Assembly: GCA_963726745.1 (NCBI GenBank) | Contig: CAVSDR010000003.1 | Coordinates: 640,001 to 704,000, forward strand | DNA: 64,000 nt | Source: an uncultured Verrucomicrobiae bacterium | Lineage (GTDB): Bacteria; Verrucomicrobiota; Verrucomicrobiia; Chthoniobacterales; UBA10450 | Direction: 5' to 3' | Shown: positions 4,518 through 56,625 of the stretch, one piece after another | How positions within the stretch are numbered: the first letter of the stretch is position 1 | How the letters are laid out: each line of letters starts with the position of its first letter | Program-made: the position numbers and the translations under genes | Notes under the pieces: generated by a model | The model's database searches: none | What the model saw: the letters and a program-made list of their open reading frames with translations, nothing else | What the model was told of the DNA's origin: nothing

Positions 4518-5546
4518 CTAAAATCGCCGGAACCACCCGTAAGGAAACGCATCCCCCGGGCAATCCGTGGCCCAGCGCGGCGGATTCATCTCGCGATGCG
4601 GCCGCACGGGCATGCTCCCGCCGCAGCGTTCGCGCAGGTAGCGGATCAACTCTTCGCTGGAGGCAAGCTGCGCGCGCGTCGGCTGCTGCTTGTTAAAATC
4701 GCCCACCAGGCAGATGCCTAACGAGATGTTGTTCAGGTAATCGCTGTGCACGTGGCCGCCGTTGATCTGCCGGCGCCAGCGATCGCCCACCTCCACCTGC
4801 CCGTCGCCCGAGGAGGTGCCGTTGCCGACCACGAAATGGTAGGCCATGCCGTTCTGCATCCGCCGGACTTTGCGGTGGTAATAATCGAAGGCGCGCGCGT
4901 TCCCCTGCCGCGTCCCGCTGTTGTGCACGATGATGAATTTCCAGCGCGAGCGCTGGACCGGCGCGCGGCGGATGGCGTCGATCACGCTCCGGCTCAGGTA
5001 GCGGTAGCGCGTCTCCTCGCGACCGCCGAAAATCCGCGCCCAAAAACTGCGCTTCGGCGGCGGAGGAGGCGGCGGCTCGAACCCGCGTTCCTCCTCGATG
5101 CCAGATTTTTGGATTGTGATGTCGGAGGGCAAAGAGGCCGAAATGCGCGGCGTATTAGCCGGCGGGCTGGTCGGCGCGGGCTGGGCGCGGGCGGGCGTTT
5201 CCCGCGGTTCGGCCGCGCTCGCGCGCGGAATGGGCGTGGCCTTTTCTTCGTCGTCCTCGTCGGAGGTGGCGCTGCGCTTCGGCGCGGGCGTCGCTTTCCC
5301 GCTGGCGCTCTTTTTTTTCTTCTTCGAGGTCGCCTTGGGTTTGCCGCTCGACTTCTTTGCCGGCGTCGGCTTGGCGATCGTGTGCATCTCTTCGCGCGCC
5401 TTCAAAAAAGCGTCGCGCTTCTTCTTGTCGGCTTCGGAGATTTCCGCGCGCAAAGCTCCGCCCACGAGCGCCAGCAACACCGCTGCGATTGCGAGCCAGG
5501 AGCCGCGCGCAAAACGCCCGCGCGAAAAAACAGCGCGCAACTTCAA
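4518..5546 (-). CDS. N-acetylmuramoyl-L-alanine amidase (Amidase_2 / PGRP-like) with signal peptide and K/P-rich linker
   Basis: IIVHNS, AYHFVVGNG, GICLVGDF, PHRE...TDCPG zinc-amidase motifs in the C-terminal half. Confidence 0.85.
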   Translation of the reverse strand: MKLRAVFSRGRFARGSWLAIAAVLLALVGGALRAEISEADKKKRDAFLKAREEMHTIAKPTPAKKSSGKPKATSKKKKKSASGKATPAPKRSATSDEDDEEKATPIPRASAAEPRETPARAQPAPTSPPANTPRISASLPSDITIQKSGIEEERGFEPPPPPPPKRSFWARIFGGREETRYRYLSRSVIDAIRRAPVQRSRWKFIIVHNSGTRQGNARAFDYYHRKVRRMQNGMAYHFVVGNGTSSGDGQVEVGDRWRRQINGGHVHSDYLNNISLGICLVGDFNKQQPTRAQLASSEELIRYLRERCGGSMPVRPHREMNPPRWATDCPGDAFPYGWFRRF

Positions 5547-6472
5547 GCGGCCTGGGGTTGCAGTTCGTCCGCTCTCCGGCGCGCGGCCCGTTCGCGCTCG
5601 CGCGTGAGAATGGCGTTTAATTTCCCGCCCAACAGGAGGAAGAGGCAGGTGAGATACATCCAGGTCAGGAGCATGATGATGGAGGCGAGCGCCAGGTAAG
5701 TCGGGTTATAGCGATCGTAAGCGCCTACATAATACTGGAAGAGCTTCGTCACCGTGATCCAGCCGAGCGCGAACAGGAGCGCGCCCGGGAGCGCTTGTTT
5801 TACCGTGAGATAATTCTCCGGCGTGAGCAGGTAGAGCGCGAGCGCCAGCACCGTTAGCGCCACCGCAGTCAACGGCAAGCTCAAGGCCGCGACCCATTGC
5901 TGGAGCGGAATCGAGAGCTGGAAATTCACCTCGGCCACGCCGGCCAGGGTTTCGCCAAAGACCATCGCGTTGAAAGAGAACAGGATCGTGATCCCGAACC
6001 AAAACAGGAGGAAAAAGGAGATGATGTATTTCGACCACCAATTGCGATCCTCCGCGATCCCATGCGTGCGGCTGAGCGCGTGCGAGATCGTCGAGATGAA
6101 AAGCGTCCCGAGGTAAATCCCCAGCGCAATTCCGACGTTGCCGAGCACGCCGGTGGCCCCGCTCGTGACCACGTTGGCCACGGCCGCGTCCAGGATGTCG
6201 CCTACTTTCGCGTCCGGCGGCAGGAAGCTTTTCAGAATCAAAAACATCTGGTGCAATTTCGCCGGGTCCGTCCCGAAGAGCCCGAGCAAATGCCAGAGAA
6301 AGAGCAAGCCCGGCGCGAGGGTAAAGAGGAACTGGTAGGCCATCTGCGCGGCCAGCCCGGTGGTGTTGTCCATCGCGGTTTCCCAAACCAAACGGCGCAG
6401 GACCCGGCCGATGAATTTGAGATATCTCATCTGGCGGCTGAGTCTACTTTGCCGATGGTAAACGTCCATCAA
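5543..6472 (-). CDS. YihY/virulence factor BrkB family membrane protein
   Basis: AAQMAYQFLFTLAPGLL, LPGALL...Y..YNPTY..LASIIMLLTWMYL...LLGGKLN pattern with several TM helices. The true start could be at 6430. Confidence 0.85.
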   Translation of the reverse strand: MMDVYHRQSRLSRQMRYLKFIGRVLRRLVWETAMDNTTGLAAQMAYQFLFTLAPGLLFLWHLLGLFGTDPAKLHQMFLILKSFLPPDAKVGDILDAAVANVVTSGATGVLGNVGIALGIYLGTLFISTISHALSRTHGIAEDRNWWSKYIISFFLLFWFGITILFSFNAMVFGETLAGVAEVNFQLSIPLQQWVAALSLPLTAVALTVLALALYLLTPENYLTVKQALPGALLFALGWITVTKLFQYYVGAYDRYNPTYLALASIIMLLTWMYLTCLFLLLGGKLNAILTRERERAARRRADELQPQAA

Positions 6473-6512
6473 AGTCTCGGCCGCACCGGCCGGCGGCGCA
6501 GCCTAACGAGTC

Positions 6513-7613: not shown

Positions 7614-7626
7614 CGCGAGCGGCGCT

Positions 7627-8755: not shown

Positions 8756-8817
8756 GGCCGGGAGTCTACCCCGGCGCATTGCGTTCGCCACGCGCCAAGT
8801 CCATCATCTCCGCGGCA

Positions 8818-10354
8818 ATGGATTTCGATTACGATGCGGTCGTGCTCGGCGGCGCTTTCTCCGGCGCGGCGACCGCTTTGCTCCTGAAGCGCAAGCACCC
8901 CGCGGCGCGCATCCTCCTGGTCGAGAAGACGGAGGAATTCGACCGCAAAGTCGGCGAATCGACCACGGAAGTAAGCAGCGCTTTCATGACCCGAATGCTT
9001 GGCCTAACGAGCTATCTCGGGCATCACCAGTTGAGCAAGCAGGGGCTGCGGATGTGGTTCGCGAAAGATTCCGCGCAGGCCTTCGACAATTGCGTGGAAG
9101 TGGGCGCGCGCTACCAGGCGCGCCTGCCCACTTTCCAGGTCGATCGCGCGACGCTCGACGAACATCTGCTCTCGCTCGCGGTCGCGGCGGGCTGCGAACT
9201 GCGCCGGCCGGCGAAGGTCACCGGGATCGAGCTGGACTGGCGCCGCCGGGCAGACAGTCACGCTCGCCGACGGCGAAACGGTGCGCACCCGCTGGCTGCT
9301 CGACGCCAGCGGCCGCGCGGCCACGCTCGCGCGCAAGCTCGGCCATTTCCGCGCGAACACCGAGCACCCGATCAACGCCGTCTGGGCGCGCTTCGAGGGC
9401 GTGAAAGATTGGGACAGCTACGAGTGGCGCGAGCGTTTCCCGGAGTACGCGAACGCCTGCCGCACCGGGCGCGGCTGGGCCACCAATCACCTCATGGGCG
9501 AAGGCTGGTGGTGCTGGATTATTCCGCTCAAGGGCGGCGACGTCAGCGCGGGCTTGGTCTACGATTCGCGGCTCTTCCAGTTTCCCAAAGAAGGCCGCCT
9601 GAGCGAGCGATTGCATCAGCACCTGCTCGGGCATCCGGTGGGGCGCGAGATCTTCGCGGACGCGCGCCCGATCGAGGGGGACGCGCACGCTTTCTCGCAG
9701 CTCCCATATGTCAGCGCGCAAGTCTGCGGCGAGGGCTGGGCCTGCGTGGGGGATGCCGCGGGCTTCATCGATCCGCTTTACAGCCCGGGCTTGGATTTTT
9801 GCTCCTACACCAGTTCCTACGTCGCGGACTTGGTGGCCGATGAACTCAGCGGGCGCGACGTCTCCGCGCGCCTCGATTATTATAACGAGCAATATGCCGT
9901 GACCTACCGCGCGTGGTTCGAGACGCTCTACCGGGACAAGTATTTTTACATGGGCGACGCCGAGCTCATGTCGGCTGCGCTCCTGCTCGATGTGGGCGCC
10001 TATTTCGTCGGTCTGGTCACGCCGGTCTATCGCGATCCCGAGCGCGAGTTCCTCCGCCTGCCCTTCGAGGGCGTGCCCGGACGTGTCGTTAGCCGGATGA
10101 TGCGCTTCTACAACCGGCGCCTCGCGCGGCTGGGCCAGCGTCGCCAGCAACACGGCGTCTTCGGCGCAAACAACGCCGGCTGGCGCGAACTTTACGATGG
10201 CTTCGTCCCCGACGCGCGCGTGCGCAAATTGATCCAGAAAGGATTGTTCCGATGGTGGAAAGCGGAACTGACCAACTTGCGGCTGCTCCTCTCGTCGAAA
10301 GGCGCGCAGCAGCGCCTGCCCGCGAGCGCGGCGACCGCAACGGTCAACGCCTGA
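8818..10354 (+). CDS. Flavin-dependent halogenase-like oxidoreductase, frameshift near 9240
   Basis: FAD loop VVLGGAFSG, KVGEST, K-x-GLR (KQGLRMWF), FQVDRATLD, LDASGR, WCWIIP (WxWxIP) and GDAAGFIDPLYSPG. Split over ORFs 8779..9843 and 9281..10354. Confidence 0.8.
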
Positions 10355-11256: not shown

Positions 11257-11684
11257 GCGAGTTTTACTTCTCGTTGCCGCGGCTGCTGCTCCGGAGCGGC
11301 GCACCGAGCGAGCGGAATGTTTTCGAGGCGCACTTCGTGGGCACGCTCGAGCATCTCGTCGTCTATTTTTGTGCGTGGGAGCTTTGCCTAACGAGTCTTC
11401 CGGGGTGGGCGCAACTCATCCTTAGCCTGCCGCTGGCGGTGCTGGTCTTTCTTGGCTGGTTGCTCCTTTTTTACCTGAACAGTCGGCTGTTGCGCCTCGG
11501 CCTTTTCGCGGGGCTGCCGCGCAGCCGCGCGCAAAATAATCTCGTCGGCCTCGTCGCCACCGCGGCCGCCTTCTCTCTTCTTTGGGCCGGCCATTGGCAT
11601 GCCTGGATCGGCGCGCTCTGGCTTGCGCTCACGGTGCTCAACCTCTTCGCCGCGGCCGTGCTCGCGCTCGACCGCATCCGCTGA
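11253..11684 (+). CDS. Small four-helix membrane protein of unknown function
   Basis: GTG start overlaps the acyltransferase stop (GTGA). The sequence is hydrophobic and sits inside the operon. Confidence 0.65.
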   Translation: MSEFYFSLPRLLLRSGAPSERNVFEAHFVGTLEHLVVYFCAWELCLTSLPGWAQLILSLPLAVLVFLGWLLLFYLNSRLLRLGLFAGLPRSRAQNNLVGLVATAAAFSLLWAGHWHAWIGALWLALTVLNLFAAAVLALDRIR

Positions 11685-11688
11685 TCTC

Positions 11689-12478
11689 ATGCTCCGCGGC
11701 TTTCTCCTTGGCTTTGCTTTCGCCGCGCCGTTGCTCTCGTTAGGCAGCGCTTTCCTGGGGCTCTCCTGGCTGCTCGCGCTCGCGCCCGTTGCTCGTTTCC
11801 CATGCGCTCCTGCTCTACGCCACGCTCACGCCCAACTGCGCCTGGTGGGGCCCGGTGCGCACCGAATTTCGCACCCGCGAAAAGGAAGTCTGGCTGACGC
11901 TCGACGATGGCCCCACGCCGGCGCACACGCTCGTCTTTCTGGAACTCCTGAAGCGCTACGACGCGCGCGCGACTTTCTTTGTCGTCGGCGAACGGGCGGA
12001 GGCGCATCCGCATTTGATTACCGAGATCCTGGCGCACGGCCACGCACTCGCGAACCACACGCAAACGCACCCGCGCGCGAGCTTTTGGTGCGCCGGTCCG
12101 GGCCGCATCGCGGGGGAAATCGACGCCTGCGCGGAGACGTTGCGGAGCGCACCCGACCGGCCGGCGCGCTACTTCCGTTCACCCGTCGGGATGACGAATC
12201 CCTTCGTCCATCCCGCGCTGGCGCGCCGCGGCCTGGCGCTCATCGGCTGGAGCGTGCGCGGGTTGGACACGATCGCGCGCGACCCGGTGAAAGTCGCCGA
12301 CCGGATCGACCGCGCGCTTCGCCCGGGCGCGATCCTTTTGTTGCATGAAGGCCAGCGGGTCGAGCGCGACCCGGAGTTCAATCCCCGCTGTCTTGAACTC
12401 GTGCTCCAGCGGCTGGCCACGCGCGGTTACCGCTGTGTGATCCCGCGGCCGGAACAACTGCGGCCGGCCGGCGTTTAA
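11689..12478 (+). CDS. Polysaccharide deacetylase (NodB homology) with N-terminal TM, frameshift near 11790
   Basis: LTLDDGP, ATFFVVG, NHTQTH, FRSPVG, ILLLHEG. The N-terminal MLRGFLLG.. segment is in another frame. Confidence 0.85.
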
Positions 12479-13130: not shown

Positions 13131-14230
13131 GGCAGCGCGGGGTTGAGCAAGCCGAGATACCAGCGGAGCAACTGCGGGCCAAAGAACATCCAGATGAGCG
13201 CGCCGCCCGCGAGATAAGGACCGAAGGGCAACTTAGCCGACCAGACGCGTTTCCCGATCACGAGCGTGCCCAGGCCGACGATGGAGCCGAGGAGCGACCC
13301 GGCGAAGATGCTGAATAAAACTGCGCGCCAGCCGAGAAACGCGCCGATTGCGGCGAGGAATTTCAAGTCGCCGCGCCCCATCGCTTCGCGCGGAATTTGC
13401 AGCTCGCGGACCACGCCGGTGATGCTGCCGAGCTGATCAAGCTGCAACTCTTCCGCGCCCACTTGGACGCGGTTGTAATGGAAGCGCAGGTCGAGCGCGC
13501 CCAACGCGCGGCCATCGATCGCGGCCTCGTTGCATTGGAGGATGAGCTGGTCTTTTTCGCGCGCGAAATTCTCACTCCAGAGCCCGCGCTCGTCGCCCAC
13601 GACGAAGTCTGCGTCATCGCCCTGGCGCGTCCAACTGAAGGCCACCGGCGCGTCGAGCCGGATGCGTTTCTTGCCGAAGACGAGCTTGCCGCCTTCCAGC
13701 ACCAGCCAGAGGAGCGCATAGCCCAGCGCGGCCGAGCCTAACGAGTAGAGCAACGCCTGCCAGCGGACCGCGGTGAGCATTAACTCCGGCACCAGCAGGC
13801 TGGCCACCACCCCCGCGCCCACGCCACCGAGCGTAATCTCGTCCGGGATGATGTAATGCTCGAAGTCGATGAAAGTCGCAGCGATCAAGAGCGAGACCAG
13901 GACGAGATAAGCCAGCGCCATGTCCCAGGGAAAAGTGCGCCAGACCGCCAGGAAGAGCAGGGCCGTGAGCAGTTCGACCGCGAAATAACGGAAAGCGATC
14001 CGCGCCCCGCAATTCGCGCAGCGCCCGCGGAGCGTGAGCCAGCTGACGAGCGGCAAATTCTGGTGCCACGGGATCTGGTGCTTGCAGACGGGGCAGAAGG
14101 AACGCTTCGGTTCATTCACCGAAAGATCGAGCGGCAGCCGATAGATGCAGACGTTCAGGAACGAGCCCACGCAGGCCCCGAGAACGAAGGCAAAAACGTT
14201 AAAGAGAATTTCGTAGGCGAGCGGTTCCAT
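13127..14230 (-). CDS. pilD: Prepilin peptidase / N-methyltransferase (A24) with an internal insertion
   Basis: GSFLNVCIYRLP, RSFCPVC, GRCANC, IDFEHYIIPD, AMGRGD, LPFGPYLA. Confidence 0.9.
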   Translation of the reverse strand: MEPLAYEILFNVFAFVLGACVGSFLNVCIYRLPLDLSVNEPKRSFCPVCKHQIPWHQNLPLVSWLTLRGRCANCGARIAFRYFAVELLTALLFLAVWRTFPWDMALAYLVLVSLLIAATFIDFEHYIIPDEITLGGVGAGVVASLLVPELMLTAVRWQALLYSLGSAALGYALLWLVLEGGKLVFGKKRIRLDAPVAFSWTRQGDDADFVVGDERGLWSENFAREKDQLILQCNEAAIDGRALGALDLRFHYNRVQVGAEELQLDQLGSITGVVRELQIPREAMGRGDLKFLAAIGAFLGWRAVLFSIFAGSLLGSIVGLGTLVIGKRVWSAKLPFGPYLAGGALIWMFFGPQLLRWYLGLLNPALP

Positions 14231-14233
14231 TCG

Positions 14234-15016: not shown

Positions 15017-15024
15017 CTCGTCGG

Positions 15025-15770: not shown

Positions 15771-18578
<2,808 letters not shown>

Positions 18579-18579: not shown

Positions 18580-20904
18580 CTACAACTTCGGATCGAACTT
18601 CCGCCACGCCGTCCAGGCGCGTTCCCAATTTTCCTGCGCGGCCCAGGCCTGGGCTTCGAGGAAATGGAAATACGCCGGAGCAGCCGGCTGGTCGGTGAAG
18701 CGGCGCACGGTGATGAGCGCGTCGGCTATTTTCCCGGCGCGCATCTGCTCCTGGTAAAGCGCGAGGCCGCCGAGGTAATCGTTCGGCGCGAAGCCTTGCG
18801 CCGGCGCGACGTTCGCGGTCTCGGGTAATTTTGGCGGCAGGCTAAAGCGCTGCGCAAGTTCCACGGCCGCGCGAAAGTCCCCCCGCTCCGCCTGCGCCTG
18901 CGCCACCGCCCGCCACGCCTGCGGCAGGAGCGACGGGTTTTCCTCCACGAGCACGAGCAGTCGCGCGCGCTCGCCCCGCTCGCGCCAAAGCGCGAATAGC
19001 TCCCGCTGTTGCCCCGCGCTCAAGCTTGCCAGCGCCGGATCGTGCGCCAGCAAACGCTCCAGTGCCGCCTCGAAATCCGCGCCCGTCGCGCGCGCGAGAA
19101 AAGTGAGCGCGAGGTCCGGCTGCACGCTCCCAAATTCGAGCAGCCGCCGCCGCACCGCGGGGTTGAGCTGGGTCGCGCTCGAGAGCATGCGCGCGTAGAG
19201 CGTGGCGCGCTCGGTTCCGGCGCGGCGCAAAGCCTCGCGCCATGCGGTCAACGTGAGTAATGGATCGCGCGTGACCCAGGCGAGCCCTTCCTGATACGGC
19301 ACCTCGAAAGAGGTCGACTCGAAGAAGCGCGCGCGGCGAAAATCCGCCAACGCCTCGTTAGGCCGGCCGGCGCCGACCTCGCCGAGCGCGCGCACGAAGT
19401 AGAGTTGCCAATCGAGCGGCGCCCACTGCAATCCGCGCGTAGCCTGCGCGATCACCGCCGGGTAATCGCCTTCCGCATTCGCTTTCGTGGCCAGGCGCCG
19501 GGCCGTATCCGCACCGATTCCGCCGGGAAGCGAAGAACTCCAGGCCCAGGTCCCACCGAGCACGATAAGCATCGCGCCCAGCCCGCGAAAAATAACCGGC
19601 AAGCTGCGGCTGCTCGTGGCCGGCCGATGGAGCGCGAGGGCAAACAAGAAGAGCCCCGCATAGGCCGAGCCGACCCGATGCCCGGAGACATCGACCAGGC
19701 CGTGCAGCGCGAAGAGCGAGGCCGCGAGCAGCGCGGCCAGGCGCAAGCGCACATTGGTTCCTTCGCCGAGCGGCGGGAAGCGCCGGAGAAGCAAGGCCGC
19801 GCCCAGCAGAAGCAAGACGACCGCAGGCCAGCCAAGCTCCGCCGCGGTCCACAGCCAATCACTTTCCGGATGGAGCACGCGATTCTGCCCGCTGGAGGCG
19901 TCGCGGAAAATCGAGAAGACCGGCGAGAAATTTCCCAAGCCAATGCCGGTCCAGGGCGAAGTCCGGATCAACTCCAGCGTGTCGCGAAAGATCAGCCAGC
20001 GAAAATCAGCCGACACATTGGCGCCCTCGCCGCCGCGCAAATGGAAGCGCTCAAGTGTAGCGCCGCCGAAAAGCAGCACCGCAGTCAACAGGACGAGCAA
20101 CGCCGAAAAACCGAGCGCAATCCGTGCCGGCGATCCGCTGCGCAGGACCAGCAAGCCGAGCCAGAACGCGCTCCCGACGACAAAAATCGCCAGGCCCGCG
20201 CGCGAGAAATTCAGGACCAACGCCACCGCGATCACGGCCACGCCGAGCAACCAAAAGACCCAGCGCTTCCTCCCTTTCCGCAGCTCCTCCTGCCCGCAAG
20301 CCAGCAGGATGACCGCGCTGATTCCAAGCAAGTCGGCGGTTTGATTGCGATTTGGGAATGGCCCAAAGCCGCGCTGGTTATGCCAGAACGGCAGCGCAGT
20401 TTTCGCGAGATAGAGGCCGATCATGAGCGCCGCCAGCAGGGCGACGCCGCCCGCAAAGACGCGCAATTGCCGGCGGAGCGCGTGGCCATCGAGCTCCTGC
20501 GCGCTCGCGTAGTAGAGCCACCCCAGCCCCGCGACCAGGCTGCCGAAGCCACCGGCGCTGATCCACGGTTGGGGCGACAAAGTAGCCGGCAGGATGAGAT
20601 TGAAATCGTTCCGCAAAACCTCCCGCCAGGCCGGCTGCGGAAACCAGCTCGCGGGCAAAAACGCCAGCGCGGCGCAGCTCACGAGCAGGAGCGCGACAAG
20701 GTGGAACCAAAGGCCCTGCGAGCGTCGCGGCGGATTAGCCAGCCAGATCACCCCAAGGAGCGCGACCACGATCCCCTCGGCCCATTTCTCGGTCGCGCCG
20801 CCGAGAAAGCAGGCCACCAGCGGCAGCGCCGGGACGGCAAAGTCGCGCCAATGCAGCGGCGCGCGATCCCCTCGGCGGAGGCGTTGGCGGCGGGGCTCTC
20901 CCAT
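18580..20904 (-). CDS. O-antigen ligase (Wzy_C) family membrane protein with C-terminal TPR-like region
   Basis: GPFPNRN, NFSRAG, RWLIFRD, GIGLGNF, HPESDWL..AELG, LHGLVD, followed by a helical Ala-rich C-terminal half. Confidence 0.8.
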   Translation of the reverse strand: MGEPRRQRLRRGDRAPLHWRDFAVPALPLVACFLGGATEKWAEGIVVALLGVIWLANPPRRSQGLWFHLVALLLVSCAALAFLPASWFPQPAWREVLRNDFNLILPATLSPQPWISAGGFGSLVAGLGWLYYASAQELDGHALRRQLRVFAGGVALLAALMIGLYLAKTALPFWHNQRGFGPFPNRNQTADLLGISAVILLACGQEELRKGRKRWVFWLLGVAVIAVALVLNFSRAGLAIFVVGSAFWLGLLVLRSGSPARIALGFSALLVLLTAVLLFGGATLERFHLRGGEGANVSADFRWLIFRDTLELIRTSPWTGIGLGNFSPVFSIFRDASSGQNRVLHPESDWLWTAAELGWPAVVLLLLGAALLLRRFPPLGEGTNVRLRLAALLAASLFALHGLVDVSGHRVGSAYAGLFLFALALHRPATSSRSLPVIFRGLGAMLIVLGGTWAWSSSLPGGIGADTARRLATKANAEGDYPAVIAQATRGLQWAPLDWQLYFVRALGEVGAGRPNEALADFRRARFFESTSFEVPYQEGLAWVTRDPLLTLTAWREALRRAGTERATLYARMLSSATQLNPAVRRRLLEFGSVQPDLALTFLARATGADFEAALERLLAHDPALASLSAGQQRELFALWRERGERARLLVLVEENPSLLPQAWRAVAQAQAERGDFRAAVELAQRFSLPPKLPETANVAPAQGFAPNDYLGGLALYQEQMRAGKIADALITVRRFTDQPAAPAYFHFLEAQAWAAQENWERAWTAWRKFDPKL

Positions 20905-25345: not shown

Positions 25346-25905
25346 GCTTCCAGGTTGCGCGGCTTGAGCACGCGGCAAGGATTGCCCGCCGCAATCGAAT
25401 CCGGCGGCACATCCTGCGTCACCACCGAGCAGGCACCGATGACGCTGCGCGCGCCAATCGTCAGGCCCGGCATGATGAAAGCGCGCGCGCCGATGAACGC
25501 GTCTTCGCCGATGGTGATCTTGCCGGTAACCAGCGGGATGCTTCGGCGGGTGAAATCGTGCGTTCCCGTGCTCAGGTAAACTTCCTGCGCCACCGTGGCC
25601 CGCGCGCCCACCTCGATCTCGCCTAACGAGTAGACGTTCGTCCGGTCGCCGAGGCACGAGCGGTCGTGCAAAGTTAGGTGCCACGGGATTTCGATCCGCG
25701 CGCGCTGGTGGACGAAGGGCTGGCCGTGAATGGTGGCCCCAAAGGCGCGCAGCCAAACGAGCCGCCAGGCGTTCAGCGGCTTCGGCGTCCAGGCGCAAAA
25801 GACCGCCCAGCAGAAATCCCAGAGCACCCGCCAGAGACGTTCCCCGGCTGACCAGGGCGAGCCGTAGAGTTCCTGGTCGGGCTTGACCGTTTGCAGCTCC
25901 GGCAT
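25342..25905 (-). CDS. WcaF-like hexapeptide acetyltransferase
   Basis: WTPKPLNAWRL, PWHLTL, YLSTGTHD, IAAGNP and left-handed beta-helix repeats. Confidence 0.88.
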   Translation of the reverse strand: MPELQTVKPDQELYGSPWSAGERLWRVLWDFCWAVFCAWTPKPLNAWRLVWLRAFGATIHGQPFVHQRARIEIPWHLTLHDRSCLGDRTNVYSLGEIEVGARATVAQEVYLSTGTHDFTRRSIPLVTGKITIGEDAFIGARAFIMPGLTIGARSVIGACSVVTQDVPPDSIAAGNPCRVLKPRNLEA

Positions 25906-25911
25906 GGCTCG

Positions 25912-38714: not shown

Positions 38715-40034
38715 TCAGGCAGCCGCGAGGCGCACGCTGCGGAAGCCGCGCAGGCTCAAGACGACGTTGAGGAGGAGATTTGGGAGCGCGGAGATGAGAT
38801 TGAAAAGGAGCACGCCGCGAACGCTGGTGAAATCGGTGAAAGGAATAAGCGCAGCCTGCGTGGCAAGGGTAAGCGGGATGTAAAGCCACGAGCCTTTGAT
38901 CCAGGCCTTGGAGGAATTGAGCGCCCAGAGCGTGCCGACAAAGGCGCTCGCAACCGCCCCTGCGACCATGAGCACGAGCTCGCGCTCGAGATGAAGATAT
39001 TTGCTCCCGAGAACGAGGAGAAAGATGTGCGGCGCGAGCGCAGCGACGAGCAGGATCCCGAGGCTGAACAACGCCACCGCGCCGACGATCCCAGCATATT
39101 GCCAGCGGAGGCGGCGCGGGCTTTGGCAGCGGGCGAAAGCGGGCGCAAAAACATTCGCGAGGAGATTGCTGAGGACGGAGAAGATCATTGCCAAACGCCC
39201 GAGCGCGCCGACCTCGGCCACGGCGCTGACGTGATTACCGAAGAAGCTGATCAGGAAGACGGTGATCTGACCCTGGAGGCAGAAGAAGATGGAATTTGCC
39301 GCCTGGTTGCGGATGAAGCCGCGCATCGCCAGGCGGTCTTCGTCGTTCGGCAAGGCGTGCAGGTCGATCATGCCGGCGACGTAGCGGCGGAGCATCCAGT
39401 ATTGCAGGAAGATGGCGCCGAGGCTGACGACGACCGCGACGCCGGCGTTGAGGAAGACGAACATCAGACCGCCAAGAACGAGCAGGCGTGCGATCGCGCC
39501 GGTGAGATCGATCGTGCGGATGCGGTCGATGTCGGAATGCAGCCGCGGGACCACGCTGAGCACGCCAACCGCGAGCTGGACTAGGAGACCGAGCAGAATG
39601 ACGCCGATGAGCAAGGCGGTGTAAGCCGGCGAGGCGCCGTTCTTGACCAGCATGAAGGCGAGAATGGGCGTGACCACGGCCATCGCGAGCAGGCCGAGTT
39701 TGCGGCGCAGATGCAACGCGGTCACAACCAGCTGGCTAAAACGCGCGCGGTCGCGCCAGACGCGGCCGCCAATGGCGACGAGGGCAATGCTGATGCCGAC
39801 ATCCGCGAGCACGTTGATCGTGCCCTGCATGGTGTTGGCGATGGTGAAAAAGGCGTATTCGCGCTGAGACAATTGCCTAACGAGTAGAATGCCGCTGGCA
39901 AAACCAAGCAACTGCACTGCGGCCTGGGCGAAAGCAAAAGTGCCGACGACGCGGGCGCGCTGCATCGCGCGACGGATCATGGGCGCGCTCGTTTCCGCGA
40001 GCGCAGGCGACGAGATGGAACCGAAAAAGCTCAT
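38715..40034 (-). CDS. Wzx-like oligosaccharide flippase
   Basis: About 12 TM segments starting MSFFGSIS; LADVGI, VAEVGALGRL. Confidence 0.7.
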   Translation of the reverse strand: MSFFGSISSPALAETSAPMIRRAMQRARVVGTFAFAQAAVQLLGFASGILLVRQLSQREYAFFTIANTMQGTINVLADVGISIALVAIGGRVWRDRARFSQLVVTALHLRRKLGLLAMAVVTPILAFMLVKNGASPAYTALLIGVILLGLLVQLAVGVLSVVPRLHSDIDRIRTIDLTGAIARLLVLGGLMFVFLNAGVAVVVSLGAIFLQYWMLRRYVAGMIDLHALPNDEDRLAMRGFIRNQAANSIFFCLQGQITVFLISFFGNHVSAVAEVGALGRLAMIFSVLSNLLANVFAPAFARCQSPRRLRWQYAGIVGAVALFSLGILLVAALAPHIFLLVLGSKYLHLERELVLMVAGAVASAFVGTLWALNSSKAWIKGSWLYIPLTLATQAALIPFTDFTSVRGVLLFNLISALPNLLLNVVLSLRGFRSVRLAAA

Positions 40035-45804: not shown

Positions 45805-45999
45805 GCGTCGCGGCTTCTGCTTCTGTCATCCGGTTTGAGGCTGGCGCAGGCCAGGAAGCCAACAGCGCGCACCGCCTGCCGCTCGAAAGCGCCACGTGCT
45901 CATGATCATCCACCGGCTCTTGGTTTCTCTCGGCTGCTTCTGTTGCACCGCGCACTCGGCGGTCGCGACTTTACTCTGGATGCTCCTGCGCGTGCGCTC

Positions 46000-47773
46000 A
46001 TGAACGAGGGCAACGCCAGCGTGCGCGACCTGGAGCGCCGGGAATGGTTGCGCCGATGCGGACGGTGGGCCGGCGTGGCCACCGCAGTCGCGCTGCTCGG
46101 TTTCGCCGGCTGGCACGGCTACGGACAGCTCCGGCAGCGTCAGCTTAGCCGGCAAGTTCAGCAATTCGCCGGGCAGAACGATCTCGCCCGTGCGGCCGTG
46201 GCTGCGCGACAGCTGCTCCTGCTCGATCCCGATCACTTCGAGGCTCTCACCGTGATCGCGCAGCTGGCTGACGCAAACGGGCGCGAGGAAGCGCTCGCTG
46301 CCTGGCGCGAGGTGGCCGCGCGACGGCCGGGTGATCCTGCCGGCGCGTTGCCCTACGCCCGCGCGGCGCTCCGCCTCGGGCATGCCGATTTGGCCGAGTC
46401 GATTCTCGCGGCCCTCCCCGCGACCGCACGCGACGCTGGCTATTTTCAAGTGGCCGGAGAGGTGGCCACGGAGAAAAAAGATTTCGCCGCCGCCCTGGTC
46501 CACTTCCGGCACGCACAGTCCCTCGCGCCCGGCGACGAAGCGCTCGCGCTTCGCCTTGCCAATCTTGAGCTCACCATCGGCGACCCCGCCGACGCCGAGG
46601 CCGCGCATGTTCGCCTAACGAGTTTAGCCGATCAGGGTGCAGTTCGCTTTCCGGCCGCCCGGGCCCTCGCGCTGGACGCGCTCAGGCGACGTGACCAACC
46701 AGCGGCGCTCCGCTGGGCCGCTCTCCTGCAGGTCCAACCGCACCCACCGGTGGCCGACGATCTTCTGCTACTCGAAGCCGCCGGCGAGAGCGGTTTTGCA
46801 CTGGACTTCCTCCACCGCCTCGAAAACCGAGTCGCCGCAGAACCTGCAGCAGTCGCCGCGGTCGTGACCTGGCTGAATGACCACAGGCAAGCTGCGCGCG
46901 CGGTGCAATGGCGCGAGTCGCTCTCTGCGGCCACGCTCGCCGTGCACCCGGTGCCGCTCGCATTCGCGGAATCGTTTAGCCTGCTCGAGGATTGGACCGC
47001 GCTGCAGGCGTGGGTCGCGGGGAAAGAACTGGGGCGAATTCGAGAGCTTGCGCCTGGCGGTGCAAAGCCATGCGCTCCGCCGCTTGCATCCCGCCGTCGA
47101 AACGCCCCTCGCCGCGCAGATCGCCTGGCGCGCCGCGCTCAAGGCCGCGCCGCCGGCGCAATTGCTCACGATCGCGCAGCTCGCCGAGGGCTGGGGCTAC
47201 GCCGGCGAAGCCGAGGAAGCCTGGTGGCTCCTGGCCAATCAGACCGGCGAGGCACGCGCCAGCCTCTCGGCCCTGCAGCGGATCTACCAGGCGAAGCGCG
47301 ACACTCGCGGCCTCCTCCGCGTGGCCCGGCGCGCGCTGGAGTTGGACCCGGGCGATCTCGTGGCCGCGAACAACTGTGCCAGCCTCGGCCTGCTGCTCGA
47401 TCCGGGCGACCGCGCCGGCTTCCGTCTCGCGGAAAAGTTGCACGCTGACCATCCTCAGAATCGCGCTTTCACCGCCACTTTTGCCTACGCTTTGCATGCG
47501 CACGGCCGCACCGCCGAGGCCTCGCGCGTGCTCGAAACGCTCGACGAAAAAACGCTCCGCGATCCGGCGATCGCAGCCTACTACGTTTGCCTGCTGGCCG
47601 CAGAGGGACGCATCGAGCGCGCGCGCAATTTTCTCCTGGAAGCGAAACGCGCCGCGCTCCTGCCGGAAGAAGAGAAGCTCCTGGCCGCGGCCAGCCGCAA
47701 GATTTTAGCCGACAACTCGAGGCCGTTCGCCCCGCGGCTTGCGAGCGAGAACACCGCGCTGGCTGCGCCCTAA
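46000..47773 (+). CDS. Membrane-anchored tetratricopeptide-repeat protein, frameshift near 47025
   Basis: N-terminal TM and TPR-like units (ARQLLLLDPDHFEAL, AQSLAPGD, RALELDPGDLVAANN). Confidence 0.7.
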
Positions 47774-47909
47774 ACTGCGTCGCATTTTTGCAAAGCGATC
47801 GCCGCGCAGATGCCCGCGGGGCCTATGATTTTTCAGCCGCGTTATGGGTTGCACGCTCCGGCCTCAAGCGATCAACCGGCGCAATTCCCCGCGCCGGAAA
47901 AGCCGCTAG

Positions 47910-47925
47910 GGGCACGGCACTAGCT
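47910..47925 (+). promoter_or_regulatory. Possible sigma-54 (-24/-12) promoter upstream of the hybrid kinase
   Basis: GGGCACGGCACTAGCT gives GG-N10-GC, close to TGGCACG-N4-TTGC, about 37 nt before ATG 47962. Confidence 0.3.
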
Positions 47926-47961
47926 AAAGAAGAATGCGGCCTCACCAACCACCAAAACAAC

Positions 47962-49617: not shown

Positions 49618-49648
49618 TGGCTAACGATTGATGGTTGATAGGAGCAGC

Positions 49649-50891
49649 GTGGCGCACGTTGCTTCCTCCTCGGCCAAGCCGGTCACCTTCGACGACATCA
49701 AGGCCGCGCGCACCCGCATCAAAGGCGCGGTTTATTACTCGCCCTGCCCGGTTTCGATTCCGCTGAGCGAGCTCACGGGCATGCAGATTTACTGCAAACT
49801 CGACAACCTCCAGCGCACCGGAAGTTTCAAGGAACGCGGCGCGCGCAACGCCCTGGCGCAGTTGCCTAACCGAGCAGCAAAAGCGCGGCGTCATCGCCGC
49901 TTCCGCGGGGAATCACGCGCAGGCGCTGGCCTACCAGGGGCGTTTGCTCGGCATCCCCGCGACCGTCGTCATGCCGCAGTTCGCGCCGCTGATTAAGGTG
50001 AGCAATTGCCAGAAGCTCGGCGCGACCGTGGTCATGCACGGGAAGGATTTCGGCGAAGCCAAGGCGCACGCGCATGAGCTGGCGAAGGAACGCGGCCTGG
50101 CCTACATCGACGGCTACGACGATCCCGCGATCATCGCCGGCCAGGGCACGATGGGTTTTGAGATTGTCGATCAGGTGCCGGACCTCGATGCGGTCATTTG
50201 CCCGGTCGGCGGCGGCGGCTTGCTCGCGGGCGTCGCGCTCGCAGTGAAAACCTTGCGCCCGAAAGCGCAGGTCATCGCGGTCGAAGCGGAAAACACCGCC
50301 AGCTTTTCCGCCGCGCTCAAAGCCGGGGGCCCCTGCCGCTTCGACACGCACCCGACATTGGCCGACGGCCTCGCCATTCCCACCGTGGGCACGAACGCCT
50401 ACAACGTGGCGCATGACCTGATCGATCGCTGCCTGACCGTGTCCGAAGAACAAATCGCGGTCGCTATCCTGCGCATCGTCGAATTGGAGAAAGGCGTGGT
50501 CGAAGGCGCCGCCGCCACTCCCCTCGCCGCCTGTTTGTCCGGACAGCTTCCGGAATTAGCTGGCAAAAAAGTCGTCCTCCTGCTCTGCGGCGGGAACATC
50601 GACCCGAACGTCCTCAGCCGCGTGATCGAGCGCGGCCTCGTGGCCGACGGCCGGCTCGGGCGCTTCGTCGCCGTGATCAGCGACCGTCCCGGCGGCCTGG
50701 CCGACCTGACCGCGAAAATCGCCGCCACCGGCGCGAGCATCAAACAAGTGGTGCACGACCGCGCCTTTGCCGGCAGCGATGTCAGCGCGGTCCATGTCCT
50801 CTGCACGATCGAGACGCGCAACCACGAGCACCTCGCCGAAGTGCGCGCCAAGCTCCAGGCCGACGGCGTGCGCACAATCGACGCGCGTTAG
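49649..50891 (+). CDS. ilvA: Threonine/serine ammonia-lyase with C-terminal ACT domain, frameshift near 49870
   Basis: [16 protein letters not shown] (PLP Lys), ASAGNH after correction, IIAGQGT, PVGGGGL, CGGNID, DRPGGL. AGGAG precedes the GTG start. Confidence 0.88.
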
Positions 50892-50949
50892 CAGCCGGGT
50901 GCCGCGGGGGCGGTTCTTGAATCTGCACCCGCCTTTCGTAGCTTCATTG

Positions 50950-53883
50950 ATGCATCAAGCGAACACGGGCGTTCTCGAAAAGAAACCTTCCACACGCGGC
51001 GAAAAATCCGCCGAAATCCCCGTGCTCGAACGCCAGGATGCCTTTGCCCGGCGTCACATTGGGCCGACGCCGGCGGAGATCGCGGCCATGGTGGAAACGA
51101 CCGGCGCCGGGAGCCTTGATGCGCTGATTGACTCGACCGTGCCGAAGGACATCCGGCTGAAAGGCGCGCTCCATTTGCCCGCGGCCAAGAGCGAAGGCGA
51201 AGCGCTCAATGAGCTCCGCGCGATCGCGCAGAAAAACAAAGTGCTGCGTAATTTCATCGGCGCCGGTTACTCCGATACGATCACGCCGCCGGTGATCCAG
51301 CGGAACATCCTCGAGAATCCCGGCTGGTATACCGCCTACACGCCTTACCAGGCGGAGATCGCGCAAGGCCGGCTCGAGGCGCTGGTGAACTTCCAGACGA
51401 TGATCACCGACCTGACCGCGCTCGACATTGCCAATGCCTCGATGCTTGACGAGGCGACGGCGGCCGCGGAAGCGATGGCGCTTTGCCGCGCGGTCGTGAG
51501 CGGGCGCGATGCCTTCTTTGTCTCCGAGCTCTGCCATCCGCAGACGATCGAGGTCGTGCGCACGCGCGCGCAGCCGCTCGGGGTGCAAGTGATCGTGGGC
51601 GATCACACGGCGTTCGATTTTAAGCAGTCGGTCTTCGGCGTGCTCCTGCAATATCCGGCGACCGACGGCGCGATCCACGATTACGAAGCGTTCGTTAGCC
51701 AGGCACACGCGGCTGGCGCGCTCGCGATCGTCGCGGCGGACTTGCTCAGCCTCACGCTCCTGCGCGCGCCCGGCGAGTTCGGCGCCGACGTGGCCGTGGG
51801 AAATAGCCAGCGCTTTGGCGTCCCGCTCGGCTTCGGTGGGCCGCACGCGGCTTACATGGCCACGCGCGATGCCCACAAGCGTTACCTCCCCGGCCGCCTC
51901 GTCGGCGTCTCGCACGATGCCGAAGGCCGGCCCGGTTACCGTCTCGCGCTGCAAACGCGCGAGCAACACATCCGGCGCGACAAAGCCACGAGCAACATCT
52001 GCACGGCGCAGGTGCTCCTCGCGGTCATGGCCTCAATGTATGCGGTCTATCACGGGCCGCGCGGCTTGCGCGCGATCGCCGGGCGAGTGCATGACTATGC
52101 GGCCAGGCTCGCGCAGGGCCTGGAGCAGCTCGGCTTCGAGATCGCACACGAGCACTTCTTCGACACCGTGCGCGTGGAATTAGGCGACGCCATGTCGGCC
52201 GACATCCTGCAACGGGCCGAGCGCGCCGGCTGCAATCTCCGCTCGTTAGGCCAACACGCCGTCGGCATTGCCCTCGACGAAACCACCACCGATGCCGACC
52301 TCGAGCTCCTGATGTCGATCTTCCGCGGCACTTCCGTGCGCGATTATGAGGACGACGCGCTCGACGGCTCCGCCTTTGGCATTCCGGAAAGCGCGCAGCG
52401 CACGAGCGAATACCTGACGCATCCGATCTTCAACACTCACGAGACTGAGACGGAGATGCTGCGTTACCTGCGCCGGCTCGAATCGCGCGACCTCTCGCTC
52501 TGCCACTCGATGATCCCGCTCGGCTCCTGCACGATGAAGCTGAACGCGACCGCGGAGATGTTCCCGGTTTCCTGGCCGGAATTTTCGAAGCTCCACCCGT
52601 TTGCGCCTGAGTCCCAGACCGCCGGCTATCGCGAGATGTGCGAGCAGCTCGGCATCTGGCTGGCGGAGATCACCGGCTTTGCGGCGGTCTCCCTGCAGCC
52701 GAATGCCGGTTCGCAGGGCGAATACGCCGGCCTGCTCGCAATTCGCGGTTACCACCAGGCGCGCGGCGAAGCGCATCGCAACGTTTGCCTCATTCCGCAA
52801 TCGGCCCACGGAACCAATCCCGCGAGCGCGGTCATGGCGGGCTTCAAGGTGGTGCCGGTGGCGACTTCGAAAGATGGCGACATCGACCTCGCCGATCTGC
52901 GCGCGAAAGCCGACCAGCACGCGAACGATCTCGCCGCGCTCATGGTCACCTATCCCTCGACGCACGGCGTTTTCGAGACCGCGATCCGCGAAGTCTGCGA
53001 GATCGTGCACTCGCATGGCGGCCAGGTTTACATGGATGGCGCGAACATGAATGCGCAGGTCGGGCTTTGCCGCCCGGGCGATTTCGGGCCGGACGTTTGC
53101 CATCTGAATCTGCACAAAACTTTCTGCATTCCGCACGGCGGCGGCGGCCCCGGCATGGGACCGATCGGCGTGGCCGGGCATCTCGTGCCCTTCCTTCCGG
53201 CGCATCCAAAAATTAGCCAGCCAGATGGCGCCACCGCCTCGCCTACCGGCCCGGTTTCCGCGGCGCCTTTCGGCAGCGCGAGCATCCTCACGATCTCCTG
53301 GATGTATATCCGCATGATGGGCGCGGACGGCCTGGCCGAAGCGACCAAGGTGGCGATCCTGAACGCGAACTACATCGCCAGGCGGCTCGACCAATATTTC
53401 CCGGTGCTCTACCGCGGCGCGCACGGCACGGTGGCGCACGAGTGCATCGTCGACCTCCGGCAATTCAAAAGCGCGGGCGTCGAGGTGGAAGATGTGGCCA
53501 AGCGGTTGATGGATTACGGCTTTCACGCACCGACGGTTTCGTTCCCGGTCGCGGGCACGATGATGATCGAGCCGACCGAAAGCGAGGCGAAGGAGGAGCT
53601 GGATCGTTTCTGTGAAGCGATGATCCTGATCCACGGCGAGATCCAGGAAGTGGTCGACGGCAAAGCGGACCGGAAAGACAACGTCTTGAAACACGCACCG
53701 CACACCGCCAGCAAAGTCACCGCCGATGAGTGGACCCGGCCCTACTCGCGCCAGCGCGCCGCTTACCCGGCGCCGTGGACGCGCGACTTCAAGTTCTGGC
53801 CCGCGGTCGCGCGGATCGACAACGTCTACGGCGATCGCAATCTCTTCTGCTCCTGCGTGCCGATGGACGGCTTGCCGGAATAG
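50950..53883 (+). CDS. gcvP: Glycine dehydrogenase (decarboxylating), glycine cleavage system P protein
   Basis: [79 protein letters not shown]. Confidence 0.96.
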
Positions 53884-53892
53884 CCGACGACT

Positions 53893-55014: not shown

Positions 55015-55045
55015 GCCAGAGCGTAGGCAATGCTCTTCGAGCGAG

Positions 55046-55081
55046 AAACAAAAAAGGCCGCGCATTGCTGCACGGCCTTTT
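55046..55081 (-). terminator. Rho-independent terminator after the oxidoreductase gene
   Basis: Minus strand reads AAAAGGCCGTGCA-GCAA-TGCGCGGCC-TTTTTTG: a GC stem, GNRA loop and U-tract, 20 nt after the stop at 55102. Confidence 0.8.
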
Positions 55082-55101
55082 CGAAATTAGTCAGCGACTC
55101 G

Positions 55102-56625
55102 CTAGGTATTTTCCGGCGCGAGTTCCGGCGCGCTGGCCACACGCGTAGGCACCAAACGCAGCGCCGTCCCCGTGGTCTGCTCGACCGCGGCTTCGCCACC
55201 TTCGTGATACTCGGCGTCGCCATTCACCGCCCAAAGATCATAAAGCTTGGTGTCGGCGAGAATGTTTTCCGCACAGAGCATCGCAGTCATCATCGCGTGA
55301 TCCTGGTTGTTGTATTTGTGCATCCCGTTGCGGCCAACAAGGTGGAGGTTCGGGTAACGAGTTTCGAGCTCTTCGCGAATCGTGAGGACGTTCTGCGCGT
55401 AGTGATCGTCGTAAACCGGATAGGCTTTCTTCTGCCGGACGACGGTGCCGTCCATCAGGTCGCCTTCCTTCGCGAGGCCGATCTGCATGAGCTCGCGCTT
55501 CGCCAGCTGGATCAACTCTTCGTCGCTCGAATCCCAAAGGCCGTCGTGTTCGAAGCAGAAATATTCCAGGCCGTAGCAAGCGAGCTCGGGATCCGGGACC
55601 ATCTCGGGCGACCAGGAACGGAAGTTCTGGATGCGGCCGACCTTCACCTTCGGGTCGTGGATGTAGATCCAGTTATCGGCGAAAGCGTCGCGGTTTTTCA
55701 GGATCAACATGACCGTGAGGAAGTCGCGATACTTCAAGCCCTCGGCCGCGCGCAGGGTGCGCTCGGTGACCGCGGGGTTGAGGCCGCGGATGAGCTCGCG
55801 CATCGGCGCGGAGGAAATGACATGTTCAGCCTCGAGCGTCTGCACGTCGCCGTTGGCGTCGGTGTATTGCACTGTCCAGGTCGCCGTCTCGCTGTCGTAG
55901 CCGAGGCCAGTGACCTTGCTGCCCATGCGGATCTGGCCGCCGAGCGCGATCGTCTTCTCCGCGCAGGCTTCCCACATCATGCCCGGGCCTTTGCGCGGAT
56001 ATTTGAAGGAATTAATCAGCGTCTTGATGACGTTGTTGGGATCTTTCGACTGCTTCGCCGGCAGAAGCGCGTTCTTGATCGCGCTGCCTAACGAGAGGCC
56101 TTTGATCCGCTGCGCAGCCCAGTCAGCCGAGATTTCCTTGCAGGGAATGCCCCAGACCTTCTCGGTGTAGCTCTTAAAGAAGGTGTTGAAGAGACGCTTG
56201 CCGAATTGATTGCTCACCCAGTCCTCGAAGTTGGTCGGGTTCGGCACCGGGAAGAGGCGCGCTTTTGCGTAGGAAAGGACGCACAGGGTCGAGCGGAAGA
56301 CGCCGAGTTTCATCAGCGCTTCGAAGGCCTTCAACGGATAGGCGAAGAATTTGCCGCCGTAGAAAATGCGCGAGGATCGCGGGCGATCGAGCATGTCGTC
56401 CGGCAGGATTTCCTGCCAAAATTCGTTCACCTCTTTTGACTTCGAGAAGAAGCGATGGCCGCCGATGTCGAAGTGAAAACCTTTATAGCTCGCGGTGCGC
56501 GAAATCCCGCCGACGTAGACCGGATCGGCCTCCAGGACGGTCACCGGGGTGTTGTTTTTGGAAAGGAGGTAGGCCGCGGTCAGCCCCGCCGGTCCGGCAC
56601 CAATGATTGCTACGTTTGTTTTCAT
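55102..56625 (-). CDS. FAD-dependent oxidoreductase (HemY / UDP-galactopyranose-mutase-like family)
   Basis: IIGAGPAGLTAA, DIGGHRFFSK, YTEKVWG, WAAQRI, AYPVYD, GRNGMHKYNNQDH. Confidence 0.8.
   Translation of the reverse strand: MKTNVAIIGAGPAGLTAAYLLSKNNTPVTVLEADPVYVGGISRTASYKGFHFDIGGHRFFSKSKEVNEFWQEILPDDMLDRPRSSRIFYGGKFFAYPLKAFEALMKLGVFRSTLCVLSYAKARLFPVPNPTNFEDWVSNQFGKRLFNTFFKSYTEKVWGIPCKEISADWAAQRIKGLSLGSAIKNALLPAKQSKDPNNVIKTLINSFKYPRKGPGMMWEACAEKTIALGGQIRMGSKVTGLGYDSETATWTVQYTDANGDVQTLEAEHVISSAPMRELIRGLNPAVTERTLRAAEGLKYRDFLTVMLILKNRDAFADNWIYIHDPKVKVGRIQNFRSWSPEMVPDPELACYGLEYFCFEHDGLWDSSDEELIQLAKRELMQIGLAKEGDLMDGTVVRQKKAYPVYDDHYAQNVLTIREELETRYPNLHLVGRNGMHKYNNQDHAMMTAMLCAENILADTKLYDLWAVNGDAEYHEGGEAAVEQTTGTALRLVPTRVASAPELAPENT

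Follow-up and report, generated by a model that had tools for sequence, protein, structure and literature searches.

A 10-letter word imposed on the genomes of one Chthoniobacterales family: a possible uptake-sequence-like self tag

Several kinds of short, over-represented DNA words are known from bacteria. Those of the Neisseriaceae, the DNA uptake sequences (DUS), are 10 to 12 letters long, fall into family dialects and are read by the minor pilin ComP, and Chi and the FtsK-orienting polar sequences (KOPS) are strongly co-oriented with replication. To our knowledge, uptake-type self tags have been established in only two families of Proteobacteria, with HIP1 now a candidate in cyanobacteria, and we know of no receptor for the uptake signal sequences (USS) of the Pasteurellaceae. 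In Haemophilus influenzae, 65% of USS copies are reported to lie inside genes (PMC2817400, PMC1939737), the even spacing of USS was noted by Karlin et al. (as cited in PMC1939737), an enrichment of the encoded tripeptides is reported for uptake sequences (PMC2817400), and the patterns of USS and DUS alike have been explained by molecular drive arising from biased uptake (PMC2817400, PMC1939737). HIP1 (GCGATCGC) is described as 15 to 300-fold over-represented and conserved between genomes, its function long obscure (PMC5861425); it is now tied to transformation and type IV pilus genes by phylogenetic correlation (PMC13756078; bioRxiv 10.1101/2024.09.10.611283), and the uptake reading given in the 2026 paper comes from its correlation with pilus and competence genes (PMC13756078). 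Here we describe a 10-letter word, GCCTAACGAG (reverse complement CTCGTTAGGC, 8-letter core GCCTAACG), which an earlier note had pointed out in a stretch of 64,000 nucleotides (G000:C3:640001-704000, the whole of which we call the window) from a Verrucomicrobial genome of 3,406,779 bases in 7 contigs (G000), and which may serve as a comparable self tag.

Within the window, the word occurs 17 times, 10 times on the plus strand and 7 times on the minus strand, at exactly the places where the earlier note had put it and with no eighteenth copy, against a mean of 0.08 and a maximum of 1 in 100 dinucleotide-preserving shuffles. The enrichment is thus about 200-fold, where the order of 100-fold had been estimated. 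All 12 one-mismatch copies that had been listed were recovered, five further ones lie at 3174, 25752, 29194, 37386 and 44364, and sites with at most one mismatch number 34 in all, as compared with 3.26 expected. Across G000, GCCTAACGAG is the commonest of all 10-mers, with 820 copies to the 519 of the runner-up. Markov models of orders 1 to 3 expect 4.4 to 6.1 copies, an enrichment of about 130 to 190-fold, and those of orders 4 and 5, both of which already include the word's sub-words, expect 23.8 and 253.5. The core CTAAC and the A at position 9 are near-invariant (0 to 28 copies per single-letter variant) and the outer letters at positions 1, 2, 8 and 10 are tolerant (54 to 237 copies), the tolerated variants including GCCTAACGAC with 237 copies, GCCTAACGAA with 226 and GGCTAACGAG with 166. 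The flanks of the 820 copies hold almost no information, which marks the unit as a word on its own rather than a segment of some longer repeat. The possibility that the signal is a basecalling artefact, raised at the outset, is countered by the same enrichment in related species; many of the word-rich genomes are assemblies of hundreds of contigs, and the signal is therefore independent of any one sequencing method. Systematic long-read errors at the word were looked for and none were seen, and its indel variants are not systematically frequent in G000.

Codon usage and, in part, protein sequence evidently give way to the word, which is imposed on the genes as DNA. Genes were called with a simple codon-usage picker of open reading frames (2787 genes, 85% coding), a crude procedure by which some genes are missed or misplaced. 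By these calls, 612 of the 820 copies (75%) lie in genes, 82 span gene ends and 126 are intergenic, at densities of 0.21 per kb in genes and 0.25 per kb between them. The in-gene copies are confined to the four stop-free frames, and the other two serve for termination, with 51 genes taking their stop codon from its TAA and 40 from the TAG of the complement. Shuffling synonymous codons within each gene, a control that preserves both codon usage and protein and that the earlier note had called for, leaves means of 5.6 sense and 3.5 antisense copies (at most 12 and 11 in 100 shuffles), as compared with the 231 and 386 seen, so that a 60 to 110-fold enrichment remains. The codons that the word requires are indeed rare, as had been remarked: TTA and CTA make up 2.9% and 1.5% of leucine codons, AGG 2.0% of arginine codons and CCT 8.2% of proline codons. 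Even so, the word writes 125 of the 207 x-P-N-E peptides (60%), 329 of 646 x-S-L-G (51%), 104 of 232 [SCRG]-L-T-[SR] (45%) and 57 of 211 L-V-R-[LPHQR] (27%). Occupancy of compatible peptides is alike on both gene strands, and the surplus of antisense copies arises because S-L-G is common, not from a strand effect. The tripeptides themselves are enriched in the proteome for PNE (2.41x), SLG (1.59x) and LTS (1.33x), with none for LVR (1.03x). Among 228 orthologue pairs shared with the word-poor relative G002 (75% amino-acid identity), only one of 43 words of G000 is identical in G002; the peptide is kept by other codons in 11 and changed in 32, which indicates that the word overrides codon choice and, where tolerated, the protein. 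Apart from this, the three stop codons are nearly equal in number by the crude gene calls (TAG 971, TGA 931, TAA 885), which is unusual at 64% GC and partly the word's doing.

The word marks one whole family of Chthoniobacterales. A check in related genomes, which had been proposed in the earlier note, shows 51 to 1549 copies of the 10-mer in each of 24 other species drawn from the genus, and 0 to 6 copies in 16 genomes of other families, except for G028 with 14, most of which lie about 100 bp from the left ends of integron attC sites. The 8-letter core is present in all 91 family genomes counted (28 genera), at 18 to 4562 copies that cluster by genus; 56 of them have at least 300, and density ranges over 250-fold. 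In 179 genomes of 15 other families in the order, the core is found 0 to 152 times, mostly fewer than 40, which is far below a reversed-word control (100 to 400) and implies that the true baseline for a TA-containing word is very low. These tallies include the unpublished genomes G001, G008, G042, G196 and G211, and no statement rests on these alone. A search of 400 kb of the word-poor G002 for an alternative dialect turned up no other dominant word; what remains there is a 6 to 8-fold residual excess of the core already described.

The arrangement of the copies along the chromosome is equally informative. In G000, 445 copies read forward and 375 reverse, and the replichore polarity for which a check had been suggested is not strong: bins of positive GC skew hold 117 forward and 83 reverse copies (58% forward), bins of negative skew 326 and 289 (53%), and orientation follows local skew with a rho of 0.28 (p 0.02, 69 bins). 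The GC skew of G000 is itself weak, which leaves the replichores poorly defined and the polarity test soft. Spacing is near exponential overall (coefficient of variation 1.03), with ratios of 0.92 to 1.21 beyond 0.5 kb, and close pairs are scarce: 4 lie within 100 bp where 19.6 are expected, and 8 at 100 to 200 bp where 19.1 are. To control for coding constraint, occupancy was shuffled 500 times among 1296 compatible peptide sites. Pairs of occupied sites then number 1 against 9.2 expected below 100 bp, 7 against 21.9 below 200 bp, 32 against 52.9 below 500 bp and 90 against 106.5 below 1 kb, and in none of the 500 shuffles did the first three classes fall as low as observed. The deficit implies that one copy lowers the chance of a second nearby, which a process acting site by site does not predict.

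Likely foreign DNA is depleted of the word, in line with what the earlier note had expected. The longest word-free stretch (G000:C7:60029-100750, 40.7 kb, 59.5% GC) is a surface-polysaccharide cluster with Wzz, Wzy_C, Wzt_C/ABC, DegT aminotransferases and many glycosyltransferases, and was probably acquired. In integron cassettes, the DNA other than the attC sites has the core word twice in a 17.1 kb array (G103) and nowhere in one of 19.7 kb (G048). Codon-usage quintile was tried as a proxy for native and foreign genes and set aside, the density being near-flat (0.18, 0.22, 0.26, 0.21 and 0.18 per kb) with a mild dip at both ends.

When set beside the described systems, the word most resembles the uptake sequences. 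Like the DUS, it is an asymmetric word of about 10 letters with a strong core and weaker edges, numbers from hundreds to thousands of copies, which lie on either strand and both within genes and in spacers, is clade-specific with dialects, and has its encoded tripeptides enriched. The USS share with it a location mostly in genes (65%, as compared with 75% here), a use of frames shaped by peptide tolerance, and a pattern to which the molecular-drive model applies; unlike the USS, it stands in a GC-rich genome and hence needs very rare codons, and the phylum is also different. HIP1 is palindromic and a methyltransferase target, whereas GCCTAACGAG is asymmetric, differing from its own reverse complement. 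Chi and KOPS are, like it, short over-represented words and are read by DNA-processing machines, but the word lacks their strong co-orientation.

Taken together, these observations suggest that GCCTAACGAG may be an uptake-sequence-like self tag of one Chthoniobacterales family, kept by drive at the level of DNA fragments, a reading that we favour tentatively and with somewhat less than even confidence. Some protein would read the word on DNA, and the word would accumulate if DNA pieces carrying it were passed on more often than pieces without it. The most likely route would be biased uptake or processing of DNA in natural transformation, followed by homologous recombination, a form of molecular drive such as that proposed for the USS and the DUS. 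We infer all three of its components: the uptake of DNA as such, a preference for the word at uptake or at integration, and a protein that reads it. That copies exclude one another at short range favours an effect acting per piece of DNA over repair of each site by itself, and the lack of polarity argues against Chi or KOPS. The earlier suggestion of selection or drive at the DNA level, uptake-like and not Chi- or KOPS-like, is thus supported by the shuffle, the orientation, the depletion in foreign DNA and the related genomes.

The uptake machinery of G000 permits this reading without singling it out, since the same genes are found in word-poor relatives and in many non-competent bacteria among the control genomes. 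G000 encodes a full-length ComEC of 849 aa (Competence, DUF4131 and Lactamase_B domains), a DprA whose gene adjoins ssb and topA, two PilB-like ATPases with MshEN domains, PilC-like, PilM/N-like and GspK-like proteins, a PilT-family ATPase (C6:646616-647635), the retraction motor of the type IV pilus, and 15 or more genes of pilin-like type. That comEC has two words within it and pilT another two ahead of it was considered as a hint of regulation and discarded, since of 21 family genomes only 3 have an exact word upstream of pilT. About 35 bases before the pilT start, all 21 have a sigma-54-type element, TGGCAY-N5-TTAGCT with Y for C or T (G000:C6:646560-646600 and loci L216-L235), the gene upstream of pilT ends like a response regulator, and in G080, a family member with 352 core words, ComEC is in two pieces with an in-frame TGA (C9:459447-460251).

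Several findings weigh against an uptake tag. Unlike the case of HIP1, in which pilus and competence genes correlate with the word, ComEC (present in 88 of 91 family genomes) and the PilT family (over the cut-off in 90 of 91) are near-universal regardless of density and fail as predictors of it; they are equally present in the word-poor G248 (18 copies) and G232 (36) and so give no account of density differences. The word also differs from the DUS. The search for a ComP-like pilin that the earlier note had advised gave nothing over the cut-off in G000, the best ComP_DUS match reaching 21.9 bits (cut-off 27.3) over profile positions 1 to 47, and a 390-aa pilin-like protein of the genome matches solved pilins only in the generic N-terminal helix region. 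Inverted terminator-like pairs, common for Neisseria DUS, are rare here, with a single pair of 10-bp stem at G000:C3:1052259. The 8-letter core is shared with a second phylum, which a lineage-private uptake tag does not predict, and neither does such a tag predict the word's identity with the integron core site, to which we come below. Moreover, an exclusion range of about 0.2 to 0.5 kb is less than a typical uptake fragment and would also fit a bound protein complex, and the literature searched contains no paper on uptake or transformation in the family.

The second phylum is that of the Gemmatimonadaceae, in three of whose genomes the core (its complement being CGTTAGGC) occurs 3550, 7821 and 2940 times, with 260 to 424 copies of the reversed-word control; there is no core enrichment in a genome of Lacipirellulaceae (73) or one of Acidobacteriota (135). 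Here too the word is found in genes and has an identical core, but its flanks differ from the Verrucomicrobial CTC-GTTAGGC: over 320 kb of G050, CGCCTAACG is favoured, in which GTTAGGC is followed by G and the letter two places ahead of it is not T. Among the matches listed in the genome collection, non-tandem pairs of cores (two within 30 bases) come mainly from Chthoniobacterales and Gemmatimonadaceae, and it was by way of such loci that the three Gemmatimonadaceae genomes were chosen. The pair scan was rejected as a census, many of the matches listed being tandem (GCCTAAC)n arrays in unrelated phyla; such heptamer arrays occur in many of these (L033, L040, L075, L080, L083, L107 and others) and swamp searches for paired words. 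Separately, in an Acidobacteriota genome without genome-wide enrichment (G054:C4:995350-1383579), dozens of GCCTAACG pairs stand exactly 25 bases apart in cassette-like arrays.

The foremost alternative, which we consider unlikely, is that an abundant protein of the nucleoid, or one that organises the chromosome, binds the word, each copy being directly selected as a docking site. The mutual avoidance over about 0.2 to 0.5 kb could then be a footprint or a spacing rule, and Xu, Lawrence and Durand have argued that HIP1 is selected and tied to nucleoid structure (PMC5861425). Placement is also partly shared: in 20 kb of the window compared with five word-rich relatives of 70 to 77% DNA identity, 8 of 16 core words stand at the aligned place, and in G013 alone 5 of 8. 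However, about half of the compatible sites are filled in each genome, and parallel gain could therefore yield much of this sharing. Spacing beyond 0.5 kb is near exponential, no candidate protein was found, and a 250-fold range of density in one family of similar genomes would be odd for a core architectural factor. The data fit both an uptake tag and a directly selected docking site and cannot separate the two, and the integron identity and the second phylum are left unexplained by both.

The integron connection calls for closer description. The attC site is described as an imperfect palindrome of 57 to 141 bp with paired boxes, found at cassette ends, with the core site GTTRRRY and the inverse core RYYYAAC (PMC3053210), and the word's GCCTAAC / GTTAGGC fits both strings. 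Classic cassette arrays adjoin intI in the genus and in two other genera of the family. Their attC sites start RYCTAAC-CAGGCGATGCAG and end GATCTTGNT-CTC-GTTAGRY, with CTC before GTTAGRY in 65 of 67 sites and the full word at the end of 13 of the 67. The local end, CTCGTTAGRY, thus shares 8 to 10 of the word's 10 letters; the letters that the word keeps invariant match the right end of attC, and the two end letters in which it is tolerant correspond to the variable RY. Beside intI, the attI-like sites read CTCGTTAGGC in 3 of the 4 loci that had a match. In G000, 12 attC sites lie at C6:736573-744893 and one on C4 near 150942, and an attI-like ATTCTCGTTAGGC stands 395 bp ahead of the first attC of the C6 array. 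Unlike attC sites, the 820 copies are lone and without folded partner boxes, an attC build being found at only these 13 sites of the genome. The C6 array is an attC cluster without an integrase, none being present in G000 (best TIGR02249 match 80 bits, cut-off 265).

These facts bear on another explanation, a rather improbable one in our estimation, in which a tyrosine recombinase akin to integron integrases or to Xer has the word as its half-site, an R box GTTRRRY with three spacer letters, and the activity or binding of the recombinase drives the spread of the word. The core fits RYYYAAC / GTTRRRY, the attC right ends, the attI-like sites and the tolerant end letters agree with it, and the core common to two phyla would be explained if the specificity were conserved between them. 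Against this, the integrase IntI is over the cut-off in 15 of 34 genomes of the genus without relation to word density, being not found in the word-rich G000, G024 and G010 yet present in the word-poor G005, and was rejected as the reader. The only tyrosine recombinases of G000 are two Xer-like proteins, with 72 to 79% identity to those of the word-poor G248, 57 to 60% to those of another family and 41 to 47% to those of Gemmatimonadaceae; these values show plain vertical descent, and an acquisition from, or sharing with, Gemmatimonadaceae was discarded. The attC load is untied to core count (rho 0.16, p 0.13, 91 genomes), attC-rich genomes of other families are at baseline (G191 with 37 attC and 43 cores, G057 with 27 and 51, G028 with 20 and 35), and the cassette-like arrays of the Acidobacteriota genome come with no enrichment. 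In Gemmatimonadaceae the word is without the CTC extension, and the 820 half-sites of G000 have no partner arm. The integron link is, then, not causal in any simple way. A dif-like site with the word as its right arm (G000:C2:86268-86295) was considered and dropped, as it is a convergent-gene junction of conserved synteny, found in 4 of 41 genomes at up to 3 mismatches; the real dif of G000 was not found. Sites of the form TAAC-CGCTC-GTTAGGC, likewise considered and dropped, are the back-to-back stop codons of convergent genes.

A further possibility, though a very unlikely one, is that the reader could be a DNA-uptake or processing factor tuned, in two soil phyla, to the universal integron cassette end (CTAAC / GTTAG core). 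Such a factor would bias the cells of both phyla, unrelated as these are, toward gathering DNA that carries cassettes, and through drive the bias would have left the word across their own chromosomes as its footprint. Natural transformation would be coupled to integron cassette traffic, and the shared core would be explained without a recent common ancestor.

It seems highly unlikely that the word is a by-product of sequence-specific repair or methylation, such as a very-short-patch-like correction toward a methyltransferase target, acting site by site. HIP1 has been tied to two methyltransferases (PMC4390886; PMC13756078), and one-mismatch variants at the core positions are very rare, in keeping with correction. 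Site-by-site repair does not, however, predict an exclusion of neighbours out to 0.5 kb, the motif is graded, lacks symmetry and runs to 10 letters, and the error variants that a modified base should leave in a long-read assembly are not frequent. A polar signal for recombinational repair or chromosome segregation, of the Chi or KOPS kind, is scarcely credible given the similar forward shares in bins of opposite skew and the near-equal forward and reverse counts in related genomes (contig orientation being arbitrary in drafts), even though the frequency of about one word per 4.2 kb is similar to that of Chi in E. coli and a weak correlation with skew exists.

The statement that no such signal had been described for this lineage still holds for the literature searched, which covers few subscription journals: it yielded primers, unrelated uses and work on HIP1, and nothing relevant on uptake sequences in Verrucomicrobia or Gemmatimonadaceae, an absence that is no proof. 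What is new, accordingly, is the Verrucomicrobial family, its 10-letter dialect, the figures for occupancy and exclusion, and the tests of IntI, attC load, Xer, ComEC and PilT. If the word is indeed a self tag in soil Verrucomicrobia, it would point to sequence-biased DNA exchange in abundant and mostly uncultured soil bacteria, with tagging so strong that one compatible site in two carries the word and that the proteome has been remodelled by it. The shared core and the integron identity provide handles for oligonucleotide pull-downs, and the 250-fold range of density for phylogenetic profiling. Further, the word is a practical marker of native as opposed to acquired DNA in these genomes and might help make these bacteria transformable.

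The copies in the window are collected in Table 1.

Table 1. Copies of the word in the window and their reading frames, as read by our own crude gene calls; x stands for any letter.
Feature	Coordinates	Strand	Context or reading
exact GCCTAACGAG	4716..4725	+	complement read xxC-TCG-TTA-GGC (S-L-G)
exact GCCTAACGAG	6501..6510	+	outside called genes, intergenic
exact GCCTAACGAG	9002..9011	+	spans gene end; stop codon within word
exact GCCTAACGAG	11386..11395	+	read xGC-CTA-ACG-AGx
exact GCCTAACGAG	11736..11745	-	outside called genes, intergenic
exact GCCTAACGAG	13736..13745	+	complement S-L-G; core at aligned place in relative G103, not in G010, G013, G024 or G067
exact GCCTAACGAG	19354..19363	-	read xxG-CCT-AAC-GAG (P-N-E)
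exact GCCTAACGAG	25621..25630	+	complement read CTC-GTT-AGG-Cxx (L-V-R)
exact GCCTAACGAG	25908..25917	-	TAA taken as gene end in the earlier note; word in frame inside a gene by the crude gene call
exact GCCTAACGAG	30044..30053	+	complement S-L-G
exact GCCTAACGAG	33075..33084	-	P-N-E
exact GCCTAACGAG	35437..35446	-	P-N-E
exact GCCTAACGAG	37312..37321	-	xGC-CTA-ACG-AGx
exact GCCTAACGAG	39875..39884	+	complement L-V-R
exact GCCTAACGAG	46613..46622	+	outside called genes, intergenic
GCCTAACCGAG (word with one extra C)	49864..49874	+	split point of threonine-dehydratase-like frame
exact GCCTAACGAG	52242..52251	-	complement S-L-G
exact GCCTAACGAG	56086..56095	+	complement S-L-G

The form with an extra C, GCCTAACCGAG, deserves separate mention. 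It had been claimed that the removal of one base there repairs an ilvA frame, and the threonine-dehydratase-like gene (49628-50891) is indeed broken at this place into open reading frames of 49628-49996 and 49944-50891. Base 49870 is missing in one short soil-metagenome contig of a relative, which differs at 16 other letters in 216, and the extra C is either an assembly error or a real frameshift. Matches in sequencing runs were confined to small shares from one soil study, in the form of contigs of relatives, which tell nothing of habitat or of the strain itself.

Two minor observations concern the clustering of words and other repeats in G000. Between convergent genes, just past a purN-like stop (G000:C3:1052248-1052280), a run of 33 bases takes in three core words, two of which make up the inverted pair of 10-bp stem noted above. 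The commonest 12 to 16-mers of the genome belong to a tandem hexamer, (GCCAAC)n, with about 140 copies, and a second repeat, (CCGACT)n, has about 50.

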